From a virus (Duplodnaviria > Heunggongvirae > Uroviricota > Caudoviricetes), in IMG/VR virus record IMGVR_UViG_2541047874_000004: a stretch of DNA of 60,110 nucleotides. The stretch is one strand, 5' to 3'. Positions 7,094 through 40,575 of this stretch are shown one piece after another. Both the position numbers and the translations under genes were made by a program. The stretch's first letter is position 1; each line of letters begins with the position of its first letter. Below the pieces are notes generated by a model. The model did no database searches and was not told the origin of the DNA. It saw only the letters and a program-made list of their open reading frames with translations.

Positions 7094-8039
7094 ACGCCCA
7101 CTGGTTATAAACACGCAGCTGGCAATGAAAATTGGCTTAAACGAAGCCATTGTTTTGCAACAACTGCACTACTGGTTGAGAGATACCAACTCCGGCATGG
7201 AATGTGATGGTGTTCGCTGGATTTATAACACAACGGAACAATGGCTGGAACAGTTCCCATTCTGGTCAGAGTCAACGTTAAAGCGCGCGTTTGCAAGTCT
7301 GAAAACGCTGGGGCTTTTGCGTTGTGAAAAGCTCAATAAATCAAAGCGCGATATGACCAATTTCTACACGATCAACTATGGGAGCGAGCTTTTAGATGGT
7401 GGCAAATTGAGCGAATCCATCGGTTCAAAATGCGCCGCTCCATCAGGTCAAAATGACACGATGGAAGAGGTCAAAATGAAACGCTCCATTGGTTCAAAAC
7501 GACCCAATGTCATCGGGTCAAAATGGCCTGATGATCTTACAGAGAATACAACAGAGATTACTACAGAGAATAAAAACACTTTTCGTCCGGAAGCTTCGCA
7601 ACCGGACCCGCAGACGACTGAACAGGATTTTTTAACCCGGAACTCCGACGCGGTTGTGTTTAGTGCGAAAAAACGCCAGTGGGGTAGCAGGGAGGATTTG
7701 GCGTGTGCGCAGTGGATCTGGGGGCGGATCGTGGGTCTCTACGAACAGGCAGCCAGTGATGATGGCGAGATCATGCGACCAAAAGAGCCTAACTGGACTG
7801 CCTGGGCCAATGACGTGCGCACAATGCGGATGCTGGATGGCAGAAGCCACAGACAAATTTGCGAAATGTTTGGTCGGGTTCAGCGAGATCCATTCTGGGT
7901 AAAAAACATCATGAGCCCGTCAAAGCTCCGCGAAAAATGGGACGAACTGGTCATCCGCCTGGGACGTTCACCTGTACAGCGTTGTGTTAATCATATTTCT
8001 GAACCGGATACAGAAATTCCGCCTGGTTTCAGAGGATAA
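7074..8039 (+). CDS. Phage replication initiation protein (replisome-organizer N-domain, DnaT-like C-region)
   Basis: N-terminus MSLLFAERPLVINTQLAMKIGLNEAIVLQQLHYWL is typical of phage replisome-organizer proteins; internal iterons encode repeated IGSK peptides. The ORF track starts at 7020; 7074 is preferred by homology. Confidence 0.7.
   Translation: MSLLFAERPLVINTQLAMKIGLNEAIVLQQLHYWLRDTNSGMECDGVRWIYNTTEQWLEQFPFWSESTLKRAFASLKTLGLLRCEKLNKSKRDMTNFYTINYGSELLDGGKLSESIGSKCAAPSGQNDTMEEVKMKRSIGSKRPNVIGSKWPDDLTENTTEITTENKNTFRPEASQPDPQTTEQDFLTRNSDAVVFSAKKRQWGSREDLACAQWIWGRIVGLYEQAASDDGEIMRPKEPNWTAWANDVRTMRMLDGRSHRQICEMFGRVQRDPFWVKNIMSPSKLREKWDELVIRLGRSPVQRCVNHISEPDTEIPPGFRG
7415..7530. repeat. Iteron-like direct repeats (GGTCAAAATG / GGTTCAAAA, about 5 copies) inside the replication gene; putative origin
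   Basis: Seen directly in the DNA; lambdoid origins are known to lie within the initiator gene. Confidence 0.55.
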
Positions 8040-8079
8040 GTGTTGATTTCAGGTCATGAGGTAATTTTAAGGGGGACTT

Positions 8080-8502
8080 GTGGCAAAAGTTTTTACACAA
8101 GAAGAGCGGGAAAAAATTAAATGGCAGGTGGTGGAACTCGTGCGCCAGAGCGGCCGTGAGACGTTACGGCAACTGGAAGCTAAAACAGGTGCGACTAGAT
8201 ATCTGATGAGCGTTCTTGCCAGAGAGCTGGTAGCCAGTGGCGATGTATACAACTCCGGCTACGGGTTATTCCCCTCTGAACAGGCGCGTAAGGACTGGCA
8301 AAACGCCCGCAAAAAACTCTCGAGGGCAAAGGTGAAGAAACCTGCTGTGGTTGATCCGGACCTTATCTGGTCATCACCTGACGGAGAAATACGTCGCTAC
8401 GACAGTCGCCTAAACATAATCTGTCGCGAGTGCCGGAAGAGCGAAGTTATGCAGCGCATACTGGCTTTCTATCAGGGTAATTTTCAGGACGTGGCGCAGT
8501 GA
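8080..8502 (+). CDS. Hypothetical phage protein
   Basis: 140-aa ORF in the replication-region operon; no confident family. Confidence 0.4.
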   Translation: MAKVFTQEEREKIKWQVVELVRQSGRETLRQLEAKTGATRYLMSVLARELVASGDVYNSGYGLFPSEQARKDWQNARKKLSRAKVKKPAVVDPDLIWSSPDGEIRRYDSRLNIICRECRKSEVMQRILAFYQGNFQDVAQ

Positions 8503-14106: not shown

Positions 14107-14358
14107 ATGATGAACATCGAAGAACTGCGTAAAATTTTTTGTGAAGATGGCCTCTATGCTGTGTGCGTTGAAAATGGAAATCTTGTTAGTCATTACCGCA
14201 TTATGTGTTTGCGAAAGAATGGGGCTGCGTTAATTAATTTTGTGGATGCTCGGGTCACGGACGGATTTATCTTGCGCGAAGGTGAGTTTGTCACTTCATT
14301 ACAGGCATTGAAAGAGATCGGAATAAAAGCTGGCTTTTCTGCTTTTTCAGGAGAATAA
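14107..14358 (+). CDS. rem: Rem-like protein
   Basis: 83-aa ORF in the Qin rem position. Confidence 0.6.
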   Translation: MMNIEELRKIFCEDGLYAVCVENGNLVSHYRIMCLRKNGAALINFVDARVTDGFILREGEFVTSLQALKEIGIKAGFSAFSGE

Positions 14359-22419: not shown

Positions 22420-22640
22420 TTACGGGTCCTTTCCGGTGATCCGACAGGTTACGGGGCGGCGACCTCGCGGGTTTTCGCTATTTATGAAAATTTTCCGGTT
22501 TAAGGCATTTCCGTTCTTCTTCGTCGTAACTTAATGTTTTTATTTAAAATACCCCCTGAAAAGAAAGGAAACGACAGGTGCTGAAAACGAGCTTTTGGGC
22601 CTCTGTCGTTTCCTTTCTCTGTTTTTGTCCGTGGAATGAA
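22420..22640. promoter_or_regulatory. Helper prophage cos region (cosQ-cosN-cosB) with the lambda cohesive-end sequence
   Basis: ACGGGTCCTTTCCGGTGATCCGACAGGTTACG-GGGCGGCGACCT-CGCGGGTTTTCGCTATTTATGAAAATTTTCCGG matches recalled lambda cos; the 12-nt cohesive end lies at about 22454..22465, just upstream of the Nu1 gene. Confidence 0.8.
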
Positions 22641-22642
22641 CA

Positions 22643-23162
22643 ATGGAAGTCAACAAAAAGCAGCTGGCTGAAATTTTCGGTGCGAGTATCCGTACCATTC
22701 AGAACTGGCAGGAGCAGGGAATGCCCGTTCTGCGAGGCGGTGGCAAGGGTAATGAGGTGCTTTATGACTCTGCCGCCGTCATAAAATGGTATGCCGAAAG
22801 GGATGCTGAAATTGAGAACGAAAAGCTGCGCCGGGAGGTTGAAGAATTACGGCTGGCCAGCGAGGCAGATCTTCACCCCGGAACACTTGAATTTGAGCGC
22901 CATCGCCTGACTCGTGCTCAGGCGACGGCGCAGGAACTGAAAAATGCCAAAGAATCGGCTGAAGTGGTGGAAACCGCATTCTGTACTTTCGTGCTGTCGC
23001 GTATAGCAAGGGAAATATCCAGTATTCTCGACGGTATTCCTCTGTCGGTGCAGCGACGTTTTCCTGAGCTGGATAACCGGCATATTGATTTCCTGAAACG
23101 GGATATCATCAAAGCCATGAACAAAGCAGCCGCGCTGGATGAACTGATACCGGGGTTGCTGA

Positions 23163-23188
<26 letters not shown>
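22643..23188 (+). CDS. nohQ: Terminase small subunit (lambda Nu1-like)
   Basis: 181 aa MEVNKKQLAEIFGASIRTIQNWQEQGMPVLRGGGKGNEVLYDSAAVIKWY..., near-identical to recalled lambda Nu1. Confidence 0.9.
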
Positions 23189-26869
<3,681 letters not shown>

Positions 26870-28531: not shown

Positions 28532-28586
28532 CCTGACCCTTCATCACTAAAGGCCGCCTGTGCGGCTTTTTTTACGGGATTTTTTT

Positions 28587-28832
28587 ATGTCGATGTACAC
28601 AACCGCCCAGCTGCTGGCGGCAAATGAGCAGAAATTTAAGTTTGATCCGCTGTTTCTGCGTCTCTTTTTCCGTGAGAGCTATCCCTTCACCACGGAGAAA
28701 GTCTATCTCTCACAAATTCCGGGACTGGTAAACATGGCGCTGTACGTTTCGCCGATTGTTTCCGGTGAGGTTATCCGTTCCCGTGGCGGCTCCACCTCTG
28801 AATTTACGCCGGGATATGTCAAGCCGAAGCAC
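28587..28832 (+). pseudogene. E: Major capsid protein E, 5' fragment (first 82 codons) interrupted by the satellite insertion
   Basis: MSMYTTAQLLAANEQKFKFDPLFLRLFFRESYPFTTEKVYLSQIPGLVNMALYVSPIVSGEVIRSRGGSTSEFTPGYVKPKH matches lambda E up to KPKH, then diverges (LAWLSEAFV, stop at 28862). Confidence 0.9.
28822..28831. repeat. Left copy of the 10-bp direct repeat AGCCGAAGCA (putative attL core of the inserted satellite)
   Basis: Identical 10-mer at the other junction (39785..39794), both in the E reading frame. Confidence 0.7.
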
Positions 28833-28994
28833 TTAGCATGGCTTTCTGAGGCTTTCGTGTAGTTGCTGGTTTTTACACTTAATCTTTTGATAATAAAGAA
28901 TAAGTTTATCTGGCGCTTTCACTGAATTTTCCTCGTTATCTGTGTGTTGCAATCATCTCTGTATTGCAGCTTGTATTGCTTTTTGGGGCTAAAA

Positions 28995-30230
28995 ATGGCT
29001 GGCGAGAACAAACTGAGCGACAAAGCGCTTAAAGGATATCTGGGGAAACCCAGAGAAAAGCAGATCACCATTGCTGATGGAAAGGGGCTTTCTATTCGTG
29101 TGAGTACTAAAGGGGCTGTGAGCTTTGTTTTCTTCTACAGGTTAGCAGGTGGCCGGGCTGCTCCGGTCTGGCTAACGTTGGGTAAATATCCTGATATGTC
29201 ACTCAAACAGGCAAGGGAAAAGCGCGACGAGTGCCGTGGTTGGTTGGCTGACAAACGTGATCCGCGTATCCAGATTAAGATTCAGGCTGAAGAACGCTTA
29301 AAGCCGGTCACAGTGGAGGATGCACTAAATTACTGGTATGAAAATTACTGTAAGGTGCGTCGTAAAACTCATGCTGTAACGCTTGGCAGATTTCGAAAGC
29401 ATATCTTTCCCTATATCGGTCATTTGCCCGTAAATGACACTCACCTATATGAATGGCTGGACTGTTTTGACCGAATTAAACGTAATGCACCAGTTATGGC
29501 GGCGTATGTTTTTTCTGACACTAAATTAGCTCTTCGTTTTTGTCGGGTACGCCAGTACGCGACGTGTGATGCTTTAAAGGATTTGCGCATGAGTGATGTG
29601 GGGCAGATTGCAGGTAAGCGAGATCGGGTTCTGGATGAAGCCGAACTCGGCCAGCTCTGGAAGGCAATTTTTGTCGAGCCTGATTTAAAACTAATGTCTG
29701 AATACACGCGAAAAATGTTTGTGCTTTGTACAGTATTTGGATGTCGAATGAGTGAAGCCCGATTATCAGAATGGAGCGAATGGGATCTCGAAAGTTGGGT
29801 TTGGACTGTACCAAAAGATCACTCAAAAACTGGTGTTGAAATCGTCAGACCAGTACCTGAAATTCTACGACAGTGGGTAACGGATGTTCACGAAGAGACA
29901 AAACATACTGGTTATGTGCTGGGAAGTCTGCGAATTAGAGAAAGCGTAAGCAAGATTGGGGGGAAAATCGGTAAACGTTTGGGCCATGAAAAACAATGGT
30001 CACTACACGACCTTAGAAGAACGCTATCTACTCATCTAAGTGATCTCGGTGTTGAATTTTATGTAGTAGAACAACTGTTAGGCCATGCGCTACCTGGCGT
30101 GGCAGGTGTTTACAATCGGAGTAAGTTTATGGCTAAAAAACTGGATGCTCTGGAACTCTGGACTACATATCTCAATAGCATCGCAGGTGCTGATTCAAAA
30201 GTGACAATCCTCAAACAAAAGGCTGGTTAA
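28995..30230 (+). CDS. Satellite tyrosine integrase (P4-type)
   Basis: About 411 aa from MAGENKLSDKALKGY...; arm-binding-type N-terminus and C-terminal catalytic region (HDLRRTLSTHL...LLGHA...VYNRSKF). Confidence 0.85.
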   Translation: MAGENKLSDKALKGYLGKPREKQITIADGKGLSIRVSTKGAVSFVFFYRLAGGRAAPVWLTLGKYPDMSLKQAREKRDECRGWLADKRDPRIQIKIQAEERLKPVTVEDALNYWYENYCKVRRKTHAVTLGRFRKHIFPYIGHLPVNDTHLYEWLDCFDRIKRNAPVMAAYVFSDTKLALRFCRVRQYATCDALKDLRMSDVGQIAGKRDRVLDEAELGQLWKAIFVEPDLKLMSEYTRKMFVLCTVFGCRMSEARLSEWSEWDLESWVWTVPKDHSKTGVEIVRPVPEILRQWVTDVHEETKHTGYVLGSLRIRESVSKIGGKIGKRLGHEKQWSLHDLRRTLSTHLSDLGVEFYVVEQLLGHALPGVAGVYNRSKFMAKKLDALELWTTYLNSIAGADSKVTILKQKAG

Positions 30231-30231
30231 C

Positions 30232-30459
30232 ATGAAAAAAATGGCAATTGTTGATAAAAAGGGTCTGGAGTACATTCCTAACATTGATCGTATGATCCGT
30301 GAGAAAGAATGTCGGGAGCTAACCACTCTTGCGAACAGCACACGCTGGAAGCTGGAGAAGGAAGGAAAATTTCCTAAGCGGATCAAGATTGGCGCTACTG
30401 CGGTAGCTTACCGTCTCTCCGAAGTTCAGGCATGGATTAGGGGGGAATGGCGGACATAA
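30232..30459 (+). CDS. alpA: AlpA-family transcriptional regulator
   Basis: 75 aa with the AlpA-type HTH (ECRELTTLANSTRWKLEKEGKFPKRIKIGATAVAYRLSEVQAWI) directly after int, as in PICI/P4-like satellites. Confidence 0.75.
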   Translation: MKKMAIVDKKGLEYIPNIDRMIREKECRELTTLANSTRWKLEKEGKFPKRIKIGATAVAYRLSEVQAWIRGEWRT

Positions 30460-30495
30460 ATGTTGTAGTAAATTGTTATATAAAAGGGTGTAAGC

Positions 30496-31371
30496 ATGGC
30501 TACTCGAAAAAAAAATAGCGTAGAAATGAAAACTGTTTGTGAACTAATCATATCAAGAGATGATATGAAAGATAAAATTCAAGACAGAATTCAAAAAGGA
30601 TTATTACTCCTACAGAAAAGCATAAATAACAATAGTGACTTGGAGCTGTTTAATGCTGATTACAGGAAATGGAGTGATTTTAATGCTGAGCTACTGAAGC
30701 GTAGTTTCACAAATGATGATTTCAAAGAAGAATATGAAGGTGGGGCATTTGGTGTTATTTCATTGTACGAGACTTCCTTGGGAGAAAAAATCAGTGAGGC
30801 TACGCGTAAACTCCAGAGTAAGATAAGAAAACTAGAGTCGATTATGGAGCGACTGGAGTTAATTCCTATATCTTCCAAAGTTGTTGAAGAAAATATTGAA
30901 GTACCTCAGAGTTCAGCGGTAAAAACCAAAAAGGTATTCATTGTTCATGGAAGAGATGAAATATCAAAAACCAACTTAGAAGTGTTTTTAAGAGAAATTG
31001 GCTTAGAACCTATTGTTCTCCATAGGCAAGCTGATGTAGGTCAGACAGTGATTGAGAAATTTGAAGCAAATAGTGATGTTGGTTTCGCATTCATTCTTCT
31101 CACACCTGATGAGATCGCTTATTTATTGCCGCAAGACTCTTTACCTGATAATGAAAGAGAAAAGGAGTTACGTGCACGACCAAATGTAATGTTTGAATTT
31201 GGTTATTTCGTAGGGAAATTAGGTCGTTCTAAGGTTTGTTGTCTATACACAGGTGATGTAGTGATTCCAAGTGATTTGAATGGTCTTATTTATAAAAAAT
31301 TCAATTCTTCTATTGAAGAAGTAGCATATAGCATTATTAAAGACTTGCGAGCTACTGGTTACGCAGTTTAG
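30496..31371 (+). CDS. TIR-like nucleotide-binding domain protein (Cap12/PycTIR-type C-terminal domain) with coiled-coil N-terminal domain; candidate anti-phage effector
   Basis: C-terminal KKVFIVHGRDEISKTNLEVFLREIGLEPIVLHRQADVGQTVIEKFEANSDVGFAFILLTPDE...RARPNVMFEFGYFVGKLGRSKVCCLYTGDVVIPSDLNGLIY fits the recalled TIR-like family signature; no cyclase or partner gene adjacent. Confidence 0.65.
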   Translation: MATRKKNSVEMKTVCELIISRDDMKDKIQDRIQKGLLLLQKSINNNSDLELFNADYRKWSDFNAELLKRSFTNDDFKEEYEGGAFGVISLYETSLGEKISEATRKLQSKIRKLESIMERLELIPISSKVVEENIEVPQSSAVKTKKVFIVHGRDEISKTNLEVFLREIGLEPIVLHRQADVGQTVIEKFEANSDVGFAFILLTPDEIAYLLPQDSLPDNEREKELRARPNVMFEFGYFVGKLGRSKVCCLYTGDVVIPSDLNGLIYKKFNSSIEEVAYSIIKDLRATGYAV

Positions 31372-31400
31372 TAAATTCTTTGAACTAAAAATCTGCATAG

Positions 31401-31434
31401 ATATAGAGCCATTCGAGATAAATGGCTCTATATG
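31401..31434. terminator. Bidirectional terminator-like hairpin between convergent satellite genes
   Basis: ATATAGAGCCATT-CGAGATAA-ATGGCTCTATAT inverted repeat. Confidence 0.5.
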
Positions 31435-31446
31435 AAATATTATCTG

Positions 31447-31626
31447 TTAAATTTTGACTTCATATCCGCGTTGCTGTAGTTCTTTGCGAATAATCCTTTT
31501 AATCCAGGCTGCTAAAGATTCGTCTCCATCTACTTGCTGTGCTTGCTCCATCAACTCCCTCAACTCAGGATCTAACCGAAACTGGAACGGAGGATTACCA
31601 CGTCTTTGATTTTTGTGTGTTGACAC
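31447..31626 (-). CDS. Small ribbon-helix-helix-like regulator (tentative; GTG start)
   Basis: Hand translation of the minus strand: VSTHKNQRRGNPPFQFRLDPELRELMEQAQQVDGDESLAAWIKRIIRKELQQRGYEVKI; RHH-like pattern (FQFRLDPELRE...SLAAWIKRII); divergent from the operator-like inverted repeat. Confidence 0.35.
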   Translation of the reverse strand: MSTHKNQRRGNPPFQFRLDPELRELMEQAQQVDGDESLAAWIKRIIRKELQQRGYEVKI

Positions 31627-31680
31627 GTCAATTACACCCGATGTAATGTGTTAATGTGTGATGACACATTACATACGTGT
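31621..31680. promoter_or_regulatory. Operator-like inverted repeats in the satellite divergent promoter region
   Basis: ATGTAATGTG ... CACATTACAT inverted repeat between the tentative RHH gene and the rightward replication operon. Confidence 0.4.
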
Positions 31681-31756
31681 TTAGGAAAATGCAACGCCTC
31701 GACGTGCGGGAACACCATCGAGGCGTCTAACCAACCCGTTAAATGAGGTAACGATT

Positions 31757-32122
31757 ATGGCTGGAACACAGCATACCCAAACTCACCCTAAATTTATATA
31801 CACCTTTCTGGCACTACACCACGACCGCATGGCAGATGGAGCAACTACGGTACATGTAGCCGCTGACACGCTGGTTGATGCCCGCAAGATGGTTAAGGAG
31901 ATGGGCTATACTGCGGCTTTCTGGAAAGGGCGTGAAGAAAACACGCTGTTTATTCAGAAATGCGAAAACAATTTCATCTGGCGTTTTATCGCCCTGAGCA
32001 CCGCACAACCACGCGTAATACACATCGAGGCCGCCAGCGAACAGGAAGCCCGGCTGCAATCCCCAACTGGCTACGTGATGATATTCGCCGCCCGTATTCG
32101 TCAGGAGGTGTGCCATGAATGA
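31757..32122 (+). CDS. Hypothetical satellite protein
   Basis: 121-aa ORF with an upstream GAGGT ribosome-binding site; first gene of the rightward operon leading to the primase. Confidence 0.5.
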   Translation: MAGTQHTQTHPKFIYTFLALHHDRMADGATTVHVAADTLVDARKMVKEMGYTAAFWKGREENTLFIQKCENNFIWRFIALSTAQPRVIHIEAASEQEARLQSPTGYVMIFAARIRQEVCHE

Positions 32123-32339
32123 TCTTTATTTTAAAGTGCTGACACATGCTGAAAACGCGCTCGTTTGTGGCAAAAATATGCGAGAAATCTTATCAACCTG
32201 GCTTGATGGGACAACAAATGCGGAACACGATGAACGGGATGCTAATTTAGCTGGAGCGTTAATTACGTTACTTGATCCTGTCATCAAAGAGCTGGATGAA
32301 GCTATAAAAATACACGACCAGAGCTATACCGGAGAATAA
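32115..32339 (+). CDS. Hypothetical satellite protein
   Basis: 74-aa ORF, translationally coupled (ATGAATGA overlap). Confidence 0.45.
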   Translation: MNDLYFKVLTHAENALVCGKNMREILSTWLDGTTNAEHDERDANLAGALITLLDPVIKELDEAIKIHDQSYTGE

Positions 32340-32342
32340 AAA

Positions 32343-32630
32343 ATGAAAAATAAATTTTCTGGCTTTATTGCCAGCGGTCAAACTCATTCAAAAATCAGCC
32401 TTGGGGATATTTTCAAAGACAGCTATGGCTATCGGGTAAAGATTATTTCGGTTGATGATCGTCGTGTCTCTTATTTGCGTGATGGTTATGATTTTGAATG
32501 TGTTATGCCGCGTCAGCAGTTCGAAAGAGATTTCATTCTGGTAAAAAATTGCAAGACAGATAATCAGAGGCGTGCCGCAGGCTATATCCGTAAAATTCGG
32601 GCAATGTTAGTTGCCGGAGGTAACAAATGA
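32343..32630 (+). CDS. Hypothetical satellite protein
   Basis: 95-aa ORF, overlaps the primase start (ATGA). Confidence 0.45.
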   Translation: MKNKFSGFIASGQTHSKISLGDIFKDSYGYRVKIISVDDRRVSYLRDGYDFECVMPRQQFERDFILVKNCKTDNQRRAAGYIRKIRAMLVAGGNK

Positions 32631-34447
32631 AACGTGCTCCGAACTTAAAATACCAACCGCGCGACAAAATGACGGAAGTCATCATTTTTGCTGGCAGTGA
32701 TGCCTGGAGCCATGCAAAAGAATGGAATGAATGGGCAGGTAAGCATATTGCAGCAGATGATACACCACCAGTCATTCTGGGTACGGAACAACTGGAAAAC
32801 CTGGATGATATGCAAATTATCGATGAAGGCCGTCATTATGTGCGTGTTTATCGTGCCGGAAAGATTGCAGAGAAAAGTCTGACGAAGGTTGCGACATTAC
32901 TTGCTATTGCAGGCGTAAAGGAAGCACGTTGTTACCGTAGCTTTGTTGATCGAGAGCCTGAAGACTGGACTCCGCGCCTTGTCGGCCTAAAAGCTGAAGC
33001 GGAGCATGGGGAAAGTCTGGTGATTGAACTGCCAGTGAAGAAGGCAGAGCGCAAAAATGACGAGCGTGCTTCATCTTTGGCGTTGAATCAGATGGGGGCC
33101 AGCCAGCGCGGTGAAGTTCTCCTTGCACATTACGGCGGCGAACTGGCAATCAATGCCGACTCTGACACCGTTCATCATTACAACGGCGTTGTATGGGAGC
33201 CGGTTCAGGATAAAGAGTTACAGCGTGCTATGGCGCAGATTTTCATTGATGCGGAGATCAGCTATTCGCAGAACGCTATTAAATCGGCGGTAGATACCAT
33301 GAAGTTAAGTTTGCCTGTAATGGGGAATACAGCCCGTAACCTGATTGGATTCAGTAACGGGGTATTTGATACCAGAACTGGTAATTTTCGGGAGCATAAC
33401 AAAAACGACTGGTTGTTAATTGCCAGTGAATTACCTTTCAGTCCACCAGCAGAGGGGGAAACGCTGGCAACACATGCGCCGAATTTCTGGAAGTGGTTGC
33501 GCCGTTCGGTGGCTGAGAATGACCGCAAGGCAGATCGCGTACTGGCGGCATTATTCATGGTGCTGGCGAACCGGTACGACTGGCAGTTATTCATTGAGGT
33601 AACAGGGCCGGGGGGAAGTGGTAAAAGTGTGATGGCGGAGATTTGCACCATGCTGGCGGGTAAGGCTAATACAGTATCAGCAAGCATGAAGGCGCTGGAA
33701 GATGCAAGGGAACGTGCGTTAGTGGTTGGCTTTTCGCTGATTATCATGCCGGATATGACCCGCTACGCTGGTGATGGGGCAGGGATTAAGGCCATTACAG
33801 GCGGTGACAAGGTGGCAATTGACCCGAAACACAAAGCCCCCTATTCAACGCGTATTCCGGCAGTAGTGCTGGCGGTTAACAATAACGCCATGTCATTCAG
33901 TGACCGCAGCGGGGGGATCTCACGTCGTCGGGTGATATTCAATTTTTCGGAAGTTGTACCGGAGAACGAACGCGATTCGATGCTGGCGGAAAAAATAGAA
34001 GGTGAGCTGGCGGTAGTGATTCGCCATCTGCTTACACGGTTTGCTGATCAGGACGAAGCCAGACGCCTGTTATATGAGCAGCAGAAATCTGAAGAAGCAC
34101 TGGCGATAAAGCGAGAGGGGGATTCGCTGGTGGACTTCTGCGGCTATCTCATGGCATCGGTAATGTGTGATGGCCTGTTAGTGGGTAATGCTGAAATTGT
34201 GCCATTCAGCCCACGCAGGTATCTCTATCATGCCTATCTGGCTTATATGAGGGCACATGGGTTTGGTAAACCTGTAACACTGACGCGCTTCGGTAAAGAT
34301 ATGCCGGGGGCAATGGCGGAATATGGCAGGGAGTATATGAAACGGAAAACGAAGCACGGTTTGCGTTCAAACGTGACACTGACGGAGGAATCAGAAGACT
34401 GGATGCCATCATGTGTATCGGTCACTAATGACGATAGCAAAAATTAA
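32627..34447 (+). CDS. Primase/replicative helicase (P4 alpha-like, D5_N plus P-loop NTPase)
   Basis: 606 aa; Walker A GPGGSGKS, Walker B-like LIIMPDM; cognate TGTTCACC iterons immediately downstream. Confidence 0.8.
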   Translation: MKRAPNLKYQPRDKMTEVIIFAGSDAWSHAKEWNEWAGKHIAADDTPPVILGTEQLENLDDMQIIDEGRHYVRVYRAGKIAEKSLTKVATLLAIAGVKEARCYRSFVDREPEDWTPRLVGLKAEAEHGESLVIELPVKKAERKNDERASSLALNQMGASQRGEVLLAHYGGELAINADSDTVHHYNGVVWEPVQDKELQRAMAQIFIDAEISYSQNAIKSAVDTMKLSLPVMGNTARNLIGFSNGVFDTRTGNFREHNKNDWLLIASELPFSPPAEGETLATHAPNFWKWLRRSVAENDRKADRVLAALFMVLANRYDWQLFIEVTGPGGSGKSVMAEICTMLAGKANTVSASMKALEDARERALVVGFSLIIMPDMTRYAGDGAGIKAITGGDKVAIDPKHKAPYSTRIPAVVLAVNNNAMSFSDRSGGISRRRVIFNFSEVVPENERDSMLAEKIEGELAVVIRHLLTRFADQDEARRLLYEQQKSEEALAIKREGDSLVDFCGYLMASVMCDGLLVGNAEIVPFSPRRYLYHAYLAYMRAHGFGKPVTLTRFGKDMPGAMAEYGREYMKRKTKHGLRSNVTLTEESEDWMPSCVSVTNDDSKN

Positions 34448-34454
34448 ACTTATG

Positions 34455-34695
34455 GAATAACTGTTCACCACTGTTCACCCTGTCATAAATATCTTTTATA
34501 TCAGTATATTATAGGGTGAACAGTTATTTATGAACTGTTCACCAAACTATTCACTGTTCACCTTTTTGATTGTTTATTGAGCTTCAAGGGTGAACAGTGG
34601 TGAACAGTTGGTGAATAGTTTTTGTGAAACTGTTCACCCATTAACATTATGAATTAAAAGAGAAAATATCAAAAGGTGAACAGGTGAAGGGTTAA
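34455..34695. repeat. Satellite replication origin: about 9-10 copies of the octamer TGTTCACC / GGTGAACA in both orientations
   Basis: Seen directly (for example CTGTTCACCACTGTTCACC, GGTGAACAGTGGTGAACAG); P4 ori/crr are built from TGTTCACC iterons bound by alpha (recalled). Confidence 0.75.
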
Positions 34696-34734
34696 AACGC
34701 AAAAATTTTAATTTACTGCTGTGAGATAAAGCCT

Positions 34735-34980
34735 ATGACAGCGAAGCACACAAAAAAATCACAATCGCACGCCCTTGATTTGACGGAACACTGGTTAAGG
34801 GTGTCGATAAAAATCATCGACCGCAACGCCGGGGAAGGATACGCGAAAGCACATCCCGAACTGATTAGCGCATTCATGACAACGGCGGCTGCAAACTTTG
34901 CCACTCTGACCGAACGGGAGATTGCTGAAGCGGAGGAAGTGACAACAATCAATATTAAGTCCGGAGAGCAGGCAGCATGA
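34735..34980 (+). CDS. Hypothetical satellite protein
   Basis: 81-aa ORF; ATGA overlap with ssb. Confidence 0.45.
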   Translation: MTAKHTKKSQSHALDLTEHWLRVSIKIIDRNAGEGYAKAHPELISAFMTTAAANFATLTEREIAEAEEVTTINIKSGEQAA

Positions 34981-35426
34981 CGGCGCAAATATCAGTTTAC
35001 GGGCGGTTGGTGGACGACCCGCAGACAAAACAGACCAGCAAGGGCACCCCCATGACGCTGGCGCGTATGGCGGTATCACTGCCCTGCAGTCAGTCGGATG
35101 ACGGTCAGGCGACGATGTGGTTATCTGTCCTGGCGTTTGGCAGACAAGCCGACGCGCTGGCAAAGCATCACAAAGGCGAACTCCTGAGCGTGGCGGGTAA
35201 TATGCAGGTGAGCCAGTGGACTGGACAGAACGGTGAAACGCGGCAGGGCTGGCAGGTTATCGCAGACAGCGTAATCAGTGCGCGAACGGTGCGACCGGGC
35301 GGCAAAAAAGGTCAACAGGGTCAGGCTACTGACGCACTGAACAGAGCAAAACAACAGGCAGATCAGCAAGGAAGCCATCCACCAGTGGGAGATAATGAAC
35401 AATGGGGAGATGATATTCCGTTTTAA
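34977..35426 (+). CDS. ssb: Single-stranded DNA-binding protein
   Basis: 149 aa; OB-fold-like N-terminus, Gly/Gln-rich linker and C-terminal acidic tail ending DDIPF. Confidence 0.8.
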   Translation: MTAQISVYGRLVDDPQTKQTSKGTPMTLARMAVSLPCSQSDDGQATMWLSVLAFGRQADALAKHHKGELLSVAGNMQVSQWTGQNGETRQGWQVIADSVISARTVRPGGKKGQQGQATDALNRAKQQADQQGSHPPVGDNEQWGDDIPF

Positions 35427-35643
35427 ATATTGCCAATAAAAAAGGCCGGAAAAAAATAAATTTTCCGGCATGCTACATAAATCCCGACCAAAGGGAGTGA
35501 AGATATTAACACTAATTATCCGCGCTGAAGTTGTTATCCCAAAACTTTATACAACATTGCACTCGGTTGCATGTATTCGCATGACAAATATCGGTGATAG
35601 CATATATCCACAATTATTTTTAATGAATGCAAAGAGGATGCGT

Positions 35644-36684
35644 ATGGTTGATTTATATTCGCCTACCCAGCTTGTACAGGTGGTTAATGCTGTAGATGTA
35701 CAAAAACAACTAAATGCGTTGTTTACCAGTTTGTTTTTTACTCGCTCGGTAATGTTTGAATCGCGCGATATTATTCTTGATACAATCGACGATCCAAATA
35801 TCCCAATTGCAGCGTTTTGTTCTCCTATGGTGGGTAGTAAAGTTTCACGTGACGAAGGGTACGAATCAAAAACAATTCGTCCAGGCTATATGAAGCCGAA
35901 AAGCAGCATTGATCCAAATAAGTTAGCTGTGCGCCCTGCTGGTGTATCACCTGAGCAATACAATGCTTTTGGAGCGCGTAATATTAAAGTTAAACAGGCG
36001 ATTGTAAATCAGGCTAAAGCTATTCGTACACGTATTGAATGGCTTGCCGTTCAGGCAATCACAACGGGGAAAAATATCATTGAGGGCGATGGTATTGAAC
36101 GTTATGAGCTGGACTGGAATATTAAACCACAAAATATCATCACTCAGTCTGGCGGTGCTGAGTGGTCAGGTAAGGATAAAGAAACTTTTGATCCAAATGA
36201 TGATATTGAGAGCTACGCAGAATTTAGTGAGGGCGTCACTAATATCATCATTATGGGCGGTAATGTATGGAAGAAATACCGTTCATTCAGAGCGATAAAA
36301 GAGGCTTTGGATACCCGTCGTGGTTCTAATTCCGAACTGGAAACGGCTCTTAAAGACCTTGGTGATTCGGTGAGTTTTAAAGGGTATATGGGCGATGTTG
36401 CGATTGTTGTATACAGCGGGCGTTATACCGACGAGGACGGAACTGAAAAACATTTCCTTGATCCTGATTTGATGGTGCTTGGCAATACGGCTCTTCAGGG
36501 GATTGTCGCCTATGGCGGTATTCAGGATCCGGAGCTAATCCGAATGGGGCTGACTAAAGCCGAACTTGCACCGAAAAACTATATTGTGCCTGGTGATCCG
36601 GCTATTGAATATGTGCAGACACATTCAGCACCACAGCCAATACCGGCCCGCATCAATCGTTTTGTTACCGTTCGCATTGGCTAA
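35644..36684 (+). CDS. Satellite-encoded major capsid protein homolog (lambda E-like)
   Basis: Aligns along its length with the helper E protein (for example ITQSGGAEWSGKDKETFDPNDDIESYA vs ITQSGGTQWSQRDKSTYDPTDDIEAYA; LDTRRGSNSELETALKDLGDSVSFKGYMGDVAIVVYSG vs LDTRRGSHSELETAVKDLGKAVSYKGMYGDVAIVVYSG). Start chosen at the ATG after the AAGAGGA ribosome-binding site; the ORF track extends to 35470. Confidence 0.8.
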   Translation: MVDLYSPTQLVQVVNAVDVQKQLNALFTSLFFTRSVMFESRDIILDTIDDPNIPIAAFCSPMVGSKVSRDEGYESKTIRPGYMKPKSSIDPNKLAVRPAGVSPEQYNAFGARNIKVKQAIVNQAKAIRTRIEWLAVQAITTGKNIIEGDGIERYELDWNIKPQNIITQSGGAEWSGKDKETFDPNDDIESYAEFSEGVTNIIIMGGNVWKKYRSFRAIKEALDTRRGSNSELETALKDLGDSVSFKGYMGDVAIVVYSGRYTDEDGTEKHFLDPDLMVLGNTALQGIVAYGGIQDPELIRMGLTKAELAPKNYIVPGDPAIEYVQTHSAPQPIPARINRFVTVRIG

Positions 36685-36693
36685 GGGGGAGCA

Positions 36694-37035
36694 ATGGCTA
36701 CTCATTACACTGAACTCATGGCTGGCACTGAAGCACTGGTGACTACGCTGGGGATATTTTCAGCTAATAAAGGGGTAATTCCTGCATTTACGCCACTGAT
36801 GCAGGAAGATGCAACAGGTGCACTGGTGGTATGGGATGGTTCGAGCGTAGGTAAAGCGGTTTATGTTTCCGCTGTACAAATCGACACCGCGAAAAAAACA
36901 CAGGCTCAGGTCTATAAGACAGGTGTCTTAAATGTTGATGCTCTGAACTGGCCTGAGTCTGTAAAAGAACTGTCAGTAAAGATTGCAGCGTTTGTTGGCT
37001 CAGGTATTTCTGTTCAGCCGCTGGCTCGTGTGTAA
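36694..37035 (+). CDS. Putative head decoration protein (lambda D-like)
   Basis: 113 aa; shares the TPLM...LVVWDG...KTG...WPE...GISV pattern with gpD and is adjacent to the E-like gene; the homology is weak. Confidence 0.5.
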   Translation: MATHYTELMAGTEALVTTLGIFSANKGVIPAFTPLMQEDATGALVVWDGSSVGKAVYVSAVQIDTAKKTQAQVYKTGVLNVDALNWPESVKELSVKIAAFVGSGISVQPLARV

Positions 37036-37046
37036 AGGGGGATACA

Positions 37047-37430
37047 ATGCAGAATGATTACAATGACCTTAAGCCAATTGCCGAAATGATGTACCCGAAT
37101 CCAGCTGTAGAGGAATTAAAAGCTATCGCTGACAAAATGTGTTTAAGCGAGCGCCTTGTTGATATGAATCAGGTGATGGAAATTACAACCCTGAGTCGGC
37201 GTACACTGCTAAACCTTGAGGCTAGTGGAGAGTTCCCGGAGCGTGTGCAGGTTACGGAAGGGCGTAAGGCCTGGTATTTAAGTGAAGTGATCGACTGGAT
37301 AAATAATATTCCTCGCGCTTCTGAATATTGCCGCGTACCTGTCCCAAAAAAGCCAGATGCGGCGCTATGCCTCAAGATTGAGCGTGTACGCCGCAATGCA
37401 CGGGATGGTCGCTATAAGCTGATTGGTTGA
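37047..37430 (+). CDS. AlpA-like HTH-domain protein
   Basis: 127 aa with MNQVMEITTLSRRTLLNLEASGEFPERVQVTEGRKAWYLSEVIDWINN; ribosome-binding site AGGGGGA upstream. Confidence 0.55.
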   Translation: MQNDYNDLKPIAEMMYPNPAVEELKAIADKMCLSERLVDMNQVMEITTLSRRTLLNLEASGEFPERVQVTEGRKAWYLSEVIDWINNIPRASEYCRVPVPKKPDAALCLKIERVRRNARDGRYKLIG

Positions 37431-37456
37431 TGAAATTAGGGCCCGCTCTGGCTGGC

Positions 37457-37530
37457 GGGTCCTTTCCGGCGATCCGGCAGGCTACGGGGCGGAAGGCGCG
37501 CGGGTTTTCGCTATTTATGAGCATTTTAAG
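37457..37530. promoter_or_regulatory. Satellite cos-like site with an altered cohesive-end sequence
   Basis: CGGGTCCTTTCCGGCGATCCGGCAGGCTACG-GGGCGGAAGGCG-CGCGGGTTTTCGCTATTTATGAGCATTTT; flanks are conserved with the helper cos, 6 substitutions fall inside the 12-nt cohesive-end segment. Confidence 0.7.
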
Positions 37531-37646
37531 GGGACTGGTGGTGGTTTTGTTGTTCGCTATATCTGTATGAATAATAAGAGAAAAATACAATCAATACACC
37601 AACCTGAAACAGTAATTAAGTTGTGGTATCAATGAAATTACACCTG

Positions 37647-38174
37647 ATGAACAAAAAAAACATGGCAAAAAGTTGCCGTGTAAGCGCCACTGCGTTCGAT
37701 AAGTGGGGAGTGATTCCCGTCGAGCGTAAGGGCCGTGAGGCGTTCTATGATGTTGCCAGTGTAATAGATAATCGGGTTAACAATGCAATCAGCCAGATTA
37801 CAAACGAAACGGGCGATATTGATGACGATGAACTTTTACGCGTCAGGATCAGATTACTGACAGCACAGGCAGAGGCGCAGGAGCTTAAAAACGAGCGCGA
37901 ACGCGGCGACGTTATTGATACAGAGTTTTGTATGTATGTTCTTTCCAAACTGGCGAGTCAGATTTCATCTATCATGGACAGCCTGCCGCTTACCATGCAA
38001 AGGCGCTTCCCACAGATGACTCCGGCTATGCTGGATGGACTTAAAAAGGAAGTGGCTAAAGCCTGTAATGCCAGTGCCGGCGTTGCTGACAACCTCCCAC
38101 AGATACTGGCTGATTATCTGATGGAAAGTACAGGAAACGTACCGGATAAGTTGCAGCTGAATAAGGATAAGTAA
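37647..38174 (+). CDS. Terminase small subunit-like protein (Nu1 C-terminal homology, divergent N-terminal DNA-binding domain)
   Basis: C-terminal half aligns with helper Nu1 (TAQAEAQELKNERERGDVIDTEFCMYVLSKLASQISSIMDSLPLTMQRRFPQ vs TRAQATAQELKNAKESAEVVETAFCTFVLSRIAREISSILDGIPLSVQRRFPE); the N-terminus differs. Start uncertain (ATG at 37632, 37647 or 37662). Confidence 0.7.
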   Translation: MNKKNMAKSCRVSATAFDKWGVIPVERKGREAFYDVASVIDNRVNNAISQITNETGDIDDDELLRVRIRLLTAQAEAQELKNERERGDVIDTEFCMYVLSKLASQISSIMDSLPLTMQRRFPQMTPAMLDGLKKEVAKACNASAGVADNLPQILADYLMESTGNVPDKLQLNKDK

Positions 38175-38185
38175 CGTAGTACGCT

Positions 38186-38461
38186 ATGACTGAATCCGAA
38201 CTACTGAAAGTAATCTGCCATGCTGGTGGAGTCAGCCACCAGCATGACGAACAGACCACGCAGCCGGGCAGTGTCACCGCTGAAAATTACGCTCGTGTGG
38301 TTGCTGAGGTTATGTGGCGTGACGGTATAGAACTGAACGGACAGGATTGCTTAGTCATCCGCACCAAAGTGGTGGCTATACTGGCAGCTAGGCGGAGGCA
38401 GGGACAACGCCAGAACGTTGCATCGTACCAGTGGAAGAAGCCTGACAGACTGCGGCGATAA
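38186..38461 (+). CDS. Hypothetical satellite protein
   Basis: 91-aa ORF after the TerS-like gene. Confidence 0.4.
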   Translation: MTESELLKVICHAGGVSHQHDEQTTQPGSVTAENYARVVAEVMWRDGIELNGQDCLVIRTKVVAILAARRRQGQRQNVASYQWKKPDRLRR

Positions 38462-38863
38462 CTCTTTGATTTTCTCGACGGCCCCAAAATGGGCCTTACC
38501 ATAGCCAGCTAATAAATGAGCAAGCCTCAAAAGTGAGGTTTGTGGCCGTTTGGCCTATTCATATGCTAACTCGTTGATATTCCTGACGACGCAAATTTAC
38601 GCCTTGTGGCTGGTAGTCGAATTGCAAATTTGCAACTCAACTATGAAACTACAGGTAGTTTGGGTAGTAAAAGCAACACACTGATTTTGGGGCTTCTTCG
38701 CGATACCTAATATTATGGTATCGGTGGAAGAGATATCGTTTCTCATAGGTTAGCACCGAGGGCGGAGTTCCGCCCTCATCGAAAAATTGCTTACGAGTCG
38801 TCAAAATAAATTAATCGACTGAGTATAATGATTAACTAATTGCTCGTGTTACTTCATTATACG

Positions 38864-39625
38864 TTATTTCCCATCTTTAAGGTTTAACCAAGTGTTAATT
38901 AAAAAAAGAGCCATTGAGCCTGATAAATTTACTGCAAGTTCGGCATGCCTTGGGGATGGCTTAATTGATGAGCTGTTCGTTCCATGTGCATCACCGAGTT
39001 TATTACGAAGAGTACCTAACCCATTTACAACTGCAGAACAACCGCCGAGAATTTGTTTGAAGATATTTTCAGTATGTTGGTCGGCAGATAGGTTAAGTTC
39101 TTTTGAAAGAGTTTTATAAAGCTCTGACATTTCAATATTTTTATTATTATACTGAATGCCCATATCATCAAGAATGTGTTTGCAAACTGTTTCAAGAAGT
39201 GTTCTTGCGGAGGTTATCGCACCATCCGGATCTGTATGGCGCCGTTCAAGTGCTTTTATCCAAACGGCGTGGACTCCATCCTCGTTAAACTTTCTTAATA
39301 CATCAGATATGTCTTCATCCGCTGGAGCTTTATTTTTCCCTTCTAGATAATCCAGCATCGGCTGAAATGCCTTATAAATCAAATCTCTCCGGGGGGCATA
39401 CTTTTCAGTCTTTTTTATAAATCCCCAAAATTCTTTTAGTGAGCGATTAGTTCTCACAAACTCTGGTAATAGCTGATGTAAAGGAGGATTTTGTAAGAAA
39501 TATGTTCTTAGAAGCAAATAATCATTATTAGCTTCATCCTGGGCTCCTGTAGCTCTTGCAATTAGTATGTTTTGAAGCGCTACTGCGCGCTCTAGGTCAT
39601 TTTGAAGGGTATCTATAATATTCAT
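38864..39625 (-). CDS. Abortive-infection-like protein with Abi_C-type C-terminal domain; candidate defense cargo
   Basis: 253 aa; C-terminal GLGTLRNKLGDAHGT...PSPRHAELAVNLSGSMALFLINTWL fits the recalled Abi C-terminus signature; opposite strand to the rest of the element, at its right end. Confidence 0.55.
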   Translation of the reverse strand: MNIIDTLQNDLERAVALQNILIARATGAQDEANNDYLLLRTYFLQNPPLHQLLPEFVRTNRSLKEFWGFIKKTEKYAPRRDLIYKAFQPMLDYLEGKNKAPADEDISDVLRKFNEDGVHAVWIKALERRHTDPDGAITSARTLLETVCKHILDDMGIQYNNKNIEMSELYKTLSKELNLSADQHTENIFKQILGGCSAVVNGLGTLRNKLGDAHGTNSSSIKPSPRHAELAVNLSGSMALFLINTWLNLKDGK

Positions 39626-39784
39626 AACAAATCTTTATTCACTTCATTTGTGGGTTGATAATTGAATGGTTTGTACATTGATTTCTGTGTATTGCAGTGT
39701 GTATTGCAACATAGCCATTCAGGTAGAGATTATGCTCTATTTTTCCTCTTATATCATTCACATACTTACACCATTGACTCATGT

Positions 39785-39794
39785 AGCCGAAGCA
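39785..39794. repeat. Right copy of the 10-bp direct repeat AGCCGAAGCA (putative attR core)
   Basis: Identical to 28822..28831; E resumes in frame immediately here. Confidence 0.7.
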
Positions 39795-40575
39795 TGAAGT
39801 GAATCCGCAGATGACCCTGCGTCGCCTGCCGGATGAAGATCCGCAGAATCTGGCGGACCCGGCTTACCGCCGCCGTCGCATCATCATGCAGAACATGCGT
39901 GACGAAGAGCTGGCCATTGCTCAGGTCGAAGAGATGCAGGCCGTTTCTGCCGTGCTTAAGGGCAAATACACCATGACCGGTGAAGCCTTCGATCCGGTTG
40001 AGGTGGATATGGGCCGCAGTGAGGAGAATAACATCACGCAGTCCGGCGGCACGCAGTGGAGCCAGCGTGACAAGTCCACGTATGACCCGACCGACGATAT
40101 CGAAGCCTACGCGCTGAACGCCAGCGGTGTGGTGAATATCATCGTGTTCGATCCGAAAGGCTGGGCGCTGTTCCGTTCCTTCAAGGCCGTCAAGGATAAG
40201 CTGGATACCCGTCGCGGCTCTCATTCCGAGCTGGAGACAGCGGTGAAAGACCTGGGCAAAGCGGTGTCCTATAAGGGAATGTATGGCGATGTGGCCATCG
40301 TCGTGTATTCCGGACAGTACGTGGAAAACGGCGTCAAAAAGAACTTCCTGCCGGACAACACGATGGTGCTGGGGAACACTCAGGCACGCGGTCTGCGCAC
40401 CTATGGCTGCATTCAGGATGCGGACGCACAGCGCGAAGGCATTAACGCCTCTGCCCGTTACCCGAAAAACTGGGTGACCACCGGCGATCCGGCGCGTGAG
40501 TTCACTATGATTCAGTCAGCACCGCTGATGCTGCTGGCTGACCCTGATGAGTTCGTGTCCGTACAACTGGCGTAA
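39787..40575 (+). pseudogene. E: Major capsid protein E, 3' fragment (resumes at ...PKHEVNPQMTLRR)
   Basis: Matches recalled lambda E from EVNPQMTLRRLPDEDPQNLADPAYRRRR to the C-terminus DPDEFVSVQLA; no ATG or ribosome-binding site of its own (the ORF track begins at GTG 39799). Confidence 0.9.

Follow-up and report, generated by a model that had tools for sequence, protein, structure and literature searches.

Introduction

Among described elements, those closest to the locus reported here are the helper-embedded satellites of gene E (Tommasini, Mageeney & Williams, bioRxiv 10.1101/2022.07.18.500453). Their 11capE type is about 11 kb long, has the PICI gene order, lies co-oriented in a lambda-like E gene with a 10-bp core, and carries its own E-like capsid gene and a cos site near its right end. 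It was described as lacking terS, and it shares 258 bp (90% identity) with the cos of its helper.

Lambda-like packaging is redirected to the PICI cosB by the Rpp protein of EcCICFT073-type PICIs. Rpp is 139-154 aa long, has no C-terminal Nu1-like region, and acts only as a heterodimer with the small terminase (TerS) of the helper (PMC6739421). Some Gram-negative PICIs encode a TerS (Fillol-Salom et al. 2018, PMC6092414), and two TerS-encoding E. coli PICIs assayed in that study were not mobilised by resident prophages. The review of PICI cos sites by Murialdo and Feiss deals with Rpp islands only (PMC9026076). The SaPIs, which are pac islands of Staphylococcus, also encode a small terminase that is paired with the helper large terminase (TerL).

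For phage terminases, a precedent is N15hy4, in which a chimeric TerS with N15 recognition, together with TerL of lambda, packages N15-specific DNA, whereas lambda terminase cannot (PMC4669245). The terminases of lambda and phage 21 are a pair described as large-terminase-specific (PMC9026076). Within cosN, changes at bp 7-12 leave cos cleavage unaffected; selection acts on the left half and on cosQ but not on bp 7-12 (Feiss et al. 2015, PMC4669245). The natural cosN variation of phiD326, N15 and Gifsy-1 lies within bp 7-12 (PMC4669245).

Here we describe a satellite in which a lambda-type cosQ and cosN adjoin an N15/Monarch-like cosB and the gene for a full-length Nu1-family TerS, a module that probably recruits the large terminase of the helper.

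Results

A satellite embedded in the capsid gene of a lambda-like prophage

The window (the whole stretch of DNA analysed, 60,110 nt) contains a lambda-like prophage with the gene order Nu1, A, W, B, C, D after its cos. Its major capsid gene E is split by a satellite into two fragments (28560-28831 and 39785-40575). The features of this region are as follows.

22424-22642, plus strand: helper prophage cos, with cosQ at 22424-22430, the cohesive-end segment GGGCGGCGACCT at 22454-22465, and a lambda-type cosB with R3, R2 and R1
22643-25088, plus strand: helper terminase genes, Nu1 (22643-23188) and A (23163-25088)
28822-39794, plus strand: satellite of about 10.96 kb, co-oriented inside helper gene E, with a 10-bp repeat, AGCCGAAGCA, as att core at 28822-28831 and 39785-39794
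35470-36684: satellite E-like capsid gene
36694-37035: satellite D-like decoration gene

Besides the E-like capsid and D-like decoration proteins, the satellite encodes an integrase, a TIR protein, a D5-type primase-helicase, an SSB, an AlpA-like protein and a Nu1-family TerS, and an Abi_C protein is encoded on the opposite strand. The genes int, alpA, primase and the late zone are co-oriented, the element is integrated in a late gene of the helper, the att core is short, and the size expected of a Gram-negative PICI or helper-embedded satellite is about 10-20 kb. The hallmarks of cf-PICIs (own portal, protease, head-tail connectors, large terminase/HNH) were not found in the satellite, which has only the E-like capsid protein, the D-like decoration protein and TerS. 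RefSeq annotates an identical architecture in E. coli K56-43-un, WP8-S17 and N1420. We identify the region as the packaging module of a helper-embedded satellite of PICI type, which is a described kind of element.

Size, gene order, orientation in E, the 10-bp core, the E-like capsid gene and the position of cos are as in the 11capE type. Unlike 11capE, the window satellite has a TerS gene and its own cosB, and it shares only about 75 bp with the cos of its helper (cosQ, cosN and the first 22 nt rightward). Until the satellite leaves E, the helper is unable to make its own capsid protein; the satellite brings E-like and D-like genes.

The second cos site has a lambda-type cosQ and cosN

At 37457-37520 the window has a second lambda-type cos, which lies 15 kb downstream of that of the helper prophage.

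37457-37463, plus strand: satellite cosQ, GGGTCCT, 30 nt upstream of the first cohesive-end base as in lambda, identical to the helper cosQ in sequence and spacing
37485-37500, plus strand: satellite cosN, CG-GGGCGGAAGGCG-CG, with a predicted 12-nt 5' cohesive end at 37487-37498 if the nicks fall as in lambda

The window has exactly two copies of the 22-nt right flank CGCGGGTTTTCGCTATTTATGA, at 22466 and 37499, where 0 are expected by chance. Upstream of each copy come, in this order, cosQ GGGTCCT, 23 nt of spacer with ACG at its end, and a 12-nt segment. A satellite cos that keeps the helper flanks, as described in an earlier reading of this DNA from its sequence only, is therefore borne out. 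To the right of the shared 22 nt, the satellite and helper sequences are unrelated. The helper 12-mer is identical to that of lambda, and the satellite 12-mer GGGCGGAAGGCG differs from it at five positions (7, 8, 9, 10 and 12, with C at position 11 in both), rather than at the six of 12 counted previously.

The distance to cosQ, the CG-flanked 12-bp segment and the left half GGGCGG are those of a lambda-type cos. Among 53 unique satellite cos sequences, cosQ is nearly invariant, with GGGTCC in all but a few. Across phages and satellites, the flanking CG dinucleotides and bp 1-5 of cosN are conserved, while bp 6-12 are polymorphic. The natural cosN variants of phiD326, N15 and Gifsy-1 follow the same pattern, with differences confined to bp 6-12 and conserved CG flanks and left half (PMC4669245, PMC9026076); these cited variants differ at two or three positions, whereas GGGCGGAAGGCG differs at five.

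Two further observations were made at this site. An inverted repeat, GGCCCGC ... GCGGGTCC, at 37432-37466 closely follows the AlpA-like ORF and overlaps with cosQ. It has the look of a terminator-type hairpin and has no counterpart at the helper cos. The satellites of the window and of K56-43-un are 99.4% identical over 1201 nt, with roughly seven differences, five of which fall within 60 nt that begin shortly before cosQ and reach to the cohesive-end segment (window 37440-37500 compared with 14140-14200 of locus L001). In view of this clustering, the stretch that runs from cosQ into the right half of cosN seems to be a local hot spot of variation or exchange.

The cohesive-end allele is shared with ordinary phages

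The sequence-only reading had taken the overhang for a satellite-specific adaptation that prevents cross-annealing with helper ends, paired with a chimeric TerS consisting of a foreign N-domain and the C-terminal half of Nu1. The five mismatches in the window agree with this explanation, as does the computed duplex stability: the satellite/helper hybrid reaches -9.5 kcal/mol compared to -19 kcal/mol for the cognate DNA duplex, and retains just a 6-bp GGGCGG stem. For the viable two-mismatch N15/lambda pair, the value is -15.3 kcal/mol.

The distribution of the allele speaks against such an adaptation. IMG/VR was scanned for cos sites that have the lambda flanks and a base other than T at position 12. 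GGGCGGAAGGCG was found at 50 sites, 45 of which adjoin a canonical lambda R3/cosB and only 3 a satellite-type cosB. The isolated phages PhiR46_1 and YDC107_1 likewise have GGGCGGAAGGCG with a lambda cosB (GenBank). PhiR46_1 and the window helper are 98.5-100% identical across the three domains of Nu1 and 99.5% identical in TerL, so that essentially the same terminase uses a GGGCGGAAGGCG cosN as its own. A co-variation of large terminase and overhang allele, which we had considered, was dismissed on the same comparison, as TerL of PhiR46_1 is this similar to that of the helper despite the other allele.

A second survey was keyed on the satellite cosB motif and gave 89 satellite-type cos sites. 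The lambda allele is present at 64 of these, GGGCGTCAGGCG at 9, GGGCGGAGACCT at 5 and GGGCGGAAGGCG at only 3. GGGCGTCAGGCG is the allele of the K56-43-un and WP8-S17 satellites, which are 99.4% identical to the window satellite over 1.2 kb. The islands between roxA and phoQ in Nissle 1917 and O157:H7 have the same cosB and TerS together with the lambda allele. Across the two surveys, the overhang allele assorts independently of the cosB type.

Helper and embedded satellite were compared directly in six composites. Their alleles differ in four, as the adaptation would have it, and are identical in two (FDAARGOS_1296 and N1420). One of the composites is the reverse of the window: in E. coli CFSAN018748, the helper carries GGGCGGAAGGCG (AAGGCG) and the satellite the lambda allele (locus L293, 17484-17560 and 30249-30330). 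This satellite has the same type of TerS and cosB as that of the window and sits in a lambda-like prophage, within the portal gene. A rule that helper and satellite overhangs stay different seemed to hold for the first four composites, which differed, and was abandoned when FDAARGOS_1296 and N1420 matched.

Among the IMG/VR loci, non-lambda alleles were found in 11 of 15 E-embedded satellites and in none of 10 satellites seen outside E. A single cosB sub-lineage accounts for all but one of the E-embedded elements, and relatives that are not embedded have TCAGGCG (L195) or the lambda allele (L296). This enrichment may reflect lineage and shared ancestry and not adaptation.

Taken together, the allele data already contradict an overhang adaptation, which we regard as very unlikely. 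GGGCGGAAGGCG is one of several natural alleles of the right half of cosN that are shared by ordinary phages and satellites, and it appears to be incidental to the hijack. The poor annealing of satellite and helper ends appears real as computed, although as a by-product of drift and no property of the satellite; the idea of a designed barrier does not stand, given the two identical composites and the lack of selection on bp 7-12 (PMC4669245).

The satellite has its own cosB

To the right of cosN, the following elements were assigned.

37499-37631, plus strand: satellite cosB, with the first 22 nt as in lambda, followed by satellite-type elements
37537-37554 (bp 51-68): R3-like GGTGGTGGTTTTGTTGTT, conserved, a candidate TerS-binding element
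37596-37604 (bp 110-118): inverted ACACCAACC
37620-37629 (bp 134-143): GTTGTGGTAT, just before the start codon at bp 146

No similarity between the satellite cosB and R3, R2 or R1 of lambda was found. Its elements resemble R3 of N15 (GAGGTTGTTGTT, bp 48-59) and three GGTTGTTGT elements of the K56 helper prophage, and a GGT/GTTGTT motif is common to N15 R3 and the K56 helper R elements. The inverted element ATACACCAACCTGAA and its surroundings, which were not part of the search pattern, are invariant in the 53 unique sequences. A scan with the IHF consensus (WATCAANNNNTTR) was uninformative, as it gave no site in any cosB, the helper's included.

Satellite cosB and TerS are tightly coupled, occurring together at 84 of the 89 sites, and the module of both is present in 692 of 5426 complete E. 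coli genomes (13%). No match was obtained when GTDB species representatives were scanned with a strict pattern of the satellite cosB.

The satellite TerS is a full-length member of the Nu1 family

Two ORFs follow the satellite cosB.

37632-38174, plus strand: satellite TerS, 180 aa, Nu1 family, with an N15-class winged-helix DNA-binding domain
38186-38461, plus strand: 91-aa ORF directly downstream of terS, conserved, with homologues at the corresponding place behind rppA in EcCICFT073 and behind terS in the islands of Nissle 1917 and O157

Residues 35-151 of TerS match Pfam PF07471 (Phage_Nu1) with 87.4 bits (cutoff 30, E = 1e-24), which confirms a Nu1-family protein downstream of the cos. 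A homologue is annotated as "terminase small subunit" in RefSeq, with a length of 180 aa when read from the ATG at 37632; upstream of this ATG, a strong ribosome-binding site is not apparent. The 91-aa ORF gave no Pfam match.

Overall, TerS is 37% identical to the helper Nu1 and 47% identical to gp1 of N15. The N-terminal region, which had been thought unrelated to Nu1, turned out to be homologous: it is 35-37% identical to that of Nu1 (z = 8.8, with none of 2000 shuffles as good), and with a four-sequence profile of the domain class, the three best matches in the whole PDB were DNA-binding domains of lambda TerS (1J9I, 7LW0 and 6HN7_B; E = 0.01-0.02). A phmmer search of the PDB with full-length TerS gave no terminase match. 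Aligned with the helper Nu1, TerS is 35% identical over its DNA-binding domain, 46% over the middle region and 29% over the final 41 residues. Contrary to what had been supposed, the C-terminal half was not specially kept; the last 41 residues are the least Nu1-like part, and divergence is spread over the whole protein. These residues form the large-terminase-binding part in Nu1 of lambda, and their 29% identity to the helper Nu1 is comparable to that between lambda and phage 21 (32%). The C-terminal region of TerS nevertheless aligns to the end of Nu1 and is followed by a conserved 13-residue tail. The uniform divergence and the homologous N-domain argue against the chimeric TerS that accompanied the overhang proposal. 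The modular "chimera" pattern is seen in phage terminases such as N15 gp1 and not in the satellite TerS.

The closest named relative of TerS is N15 gp1. Their DNA-binding domains are 58% identical and the AFDKWGV helix segment is identical; S-x-x-AFDKWGV is shared by the satellite TerS, N15 gp1 and the K56 helper TerS. At 84 of the 89 satellite-type sites, the ORF is intact and has the recognition-helix segment SATAFDKWGV. Compared with the Nissle homologue, terS has an overall dN/dS of 0.10; the value is 0.02 for the DNA-binding domain, 0.08 for the middle region and 0.27 for the C-terminal part. By this measure, terS is under purifying selection that is strongest in the DNA-binding domain, and cosB and TerS, both strongly constrained, are the satellite-specific parts of the site.

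These data bear on the explanation that the satellite cos and terS derive from captured phage DNA, are in decay and have no present function. Helper-embedded satellites readily capture helper late genes (bioRxiv 10.1101/2022.07.18.500453), and the TerS-bearing PICIs assayed earlier were not mobilised (PMC6092414). However, the low dN/dS values, the intact ORF at 84 of 89 sites, the invariance of cosQ, the cosN flanks and the cosB elements across the 53 unique sequences, and the presence of the module in 13% of complete E. coli genomes make decay scarcely credible.

Comparison with N15/Monarch, Rpp and SaPI systems

A putative R element of the GGT/GTTGTT type lies at about bp 50-68 in the satellite, similar to those of the N15 gp1/cosB-N15 and "Monarch" group (PMC4669245). 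The R3-like block of the satellite is longer and shifted (GGTGGTGGTTTTGTTGTT at bp 51-68, compared with GAGGTTGTTGTT at bp 48-59 in N15), and, unlike in N15/Monarch, the satellite TerS is carried without a large terminase. The proteins also differ in their C-terminal domains: that of N15 gp1 is 80% identical to Nu1, whereas that of the satellite TerS is 29-32% identical to both. In its DNA-binding domain, N15 gp1 is 31% identical to Nu1.

The helper prophage of K56-43-un (locus L193) encodes a 168-aa N15-class TerS and has a cosB with three GGTTGTTGT elements, two direct and one inverted. It carries the lambda cohesive-end allele and a large terminase that is 92% identical to that of phage 21. 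The layout of its cosB matches the "Monarch" layout of Feiss et al. (PMC4669245), and the layout of the satellite cosB is analogous.

The Rpp of EcCICFT073-type PICIs (PMC6739421) occupies the same slot as the satellite TerS, in the order capsid, decoration protein, small ORF, cos, gene, and an ORF of 91-93 aa, and serves the same purpose. In EcCICFT073, rppA encodes 144 aa and is placed directly after cos and before a conserved ORF of about 92 aa. One slot of an otherwise conserved late module is taken by rppA there and by terS in the window satellite (7660-8094 of locus L192 and 37632-38174 of the window). An alignment of TerS with Nu1 and Rpp had been put forward as a check in the sequence-only reading. 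In it, TerS aligns with Nu1 through to the end, but the satellite TerS and RppA have no detectable similarity (BLASTP E = 6.3; z = 1.8 for the N-domain). Whereas Rpp works in a complex with helper TerS, the satellite TerS is a full-length protein of 180 aa.

As in the SaPIs, a satellite-encoded small terminase would be paired with a helper large terminase. SaPIs use headful (pac) packaging and unrelated TerS folds; the window satellite has a cos system with predicted 12-nt cohesive ends.

Discussion

A model for packaging of the satellite

We favour the reading in which the satellite module recruits the helper large terminase. After excision and replication of the satellite, its TerS would bind the satellite cosB elements and place helper gpA on the adjacent cosN. 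gpA would nick 12 nt apart whatever the right-half allele, and satellite concatemers would go into helper-derived particles. The helper Nu1 would not recognise the satellite cosB, so that recognition would depend on the satellite, and the right-half alleles of cosN would drift freely because the terminase does not read those bases.

That the satellite uses its own cos for recruiting the helper large terminase had been proposed before. A distinct cosB and an own TerS beside a lambda-type cosQ and cosN make this plausible; the contact between TerS and TerL, with 29% identity in the last 41 residues, is its weak point. TerS-bearing satellites of this family occur in helpers with lambda-type, 21-type and N15/Monarch-type TerS/cosB, near-identical satellites being those of the window, WP8 and K56 only. 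TerL was compared for two helpers only, those of the window and K56, and the first 60 residues are 57% identical. With such divergent helper types and the low C-terminal identity, direct binding of TerS to all helper TerLs is not obvious.

One alternative for this contact is bridging similar to that by Rpp. The satellite TerS would form mixed oligomers with helper TerS through the central self-association region; satellite subunits would read the satellite cosB, helper subunits would give the large-terminase-binding tails, and packaging of the helper would be poisoned as well. Such bridging is consistent with the conservation of TerS, as the middle region is the best conserved part relative to every helper TerS type (39-49%) and the C-terminal tail the poorest (29-41%). 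It also accords with the co-occurrence of one TerS sequence with three helper TerS types, and with RppA holding the same gene slot in EcCICFT073, given that Rpp heterodimerises with helper TerS (PMC6739421). On the other hand, TerS keeps what Rpp (139-154 aa) lacks, a full-length Nu1-aligned C-terminal region and the conserved 13-residue tail. This C-terminal region is constrained (dN/dS 0.27), and the similarity to RppA is undetectable (z = 1.8). On balance, we consider bridging less likely than direct recruitment, at roughly one chance in a few, but a rival to be taken seriously.

Within the recruitment model, TerS could tentatively be seen as a helper-independent adaptor for divergent large terminases, acting either via its C-terminal region and the 13-residue tail or by co-assembly with helper TerS; this, too, we hold to be improbable, if well worth considering. 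The adaptor proposal draws on the contrast between a frozen DNA-binding domain and cosB (dN/dS 0.02, invariant R elements) and helpers of three packaging specificities. If true, an adaptor TerS would be a third strategy of hijacking cos packaging, distinct from Rpp and from capsid-forming PICIs, and would shed light on a still unsolved problem, the way in which TerL is held by TerS in the lambda terminase.

The analysis separates the satellite-specific parts, namely cosB and its TerS reader, from a freely drifting sticky-end allele that is shared with ordinary phages, and it keeps a tempting but apparently wrong idea of incompatible overhangs out of the record. Satellites with an N15-class TerS are abundant in E. 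coli, being present in 13% of complete genomes, among them Nissle 1917 and O157:H7. How such a TerS engages the helper large terminase lies outside the Rpp model and is the more useful question.

Accessory genes of the satellite

Two genes of the satellite are likely anti-phage cargo. The TIR-domain protein at 30496-31371 (plus strand) matches the Pfam family CAP12-PCTIR_TIR (E = 1e-33), and the protein at 38864-39625 (minus strand), at the right end of the satellite, is an Abi_C abortive-infection protein (E = 1e-23). The left-hand cargo slot differs among related satellites and is occupied, for example, by a putative abortive-infection protein in K56-43-un.
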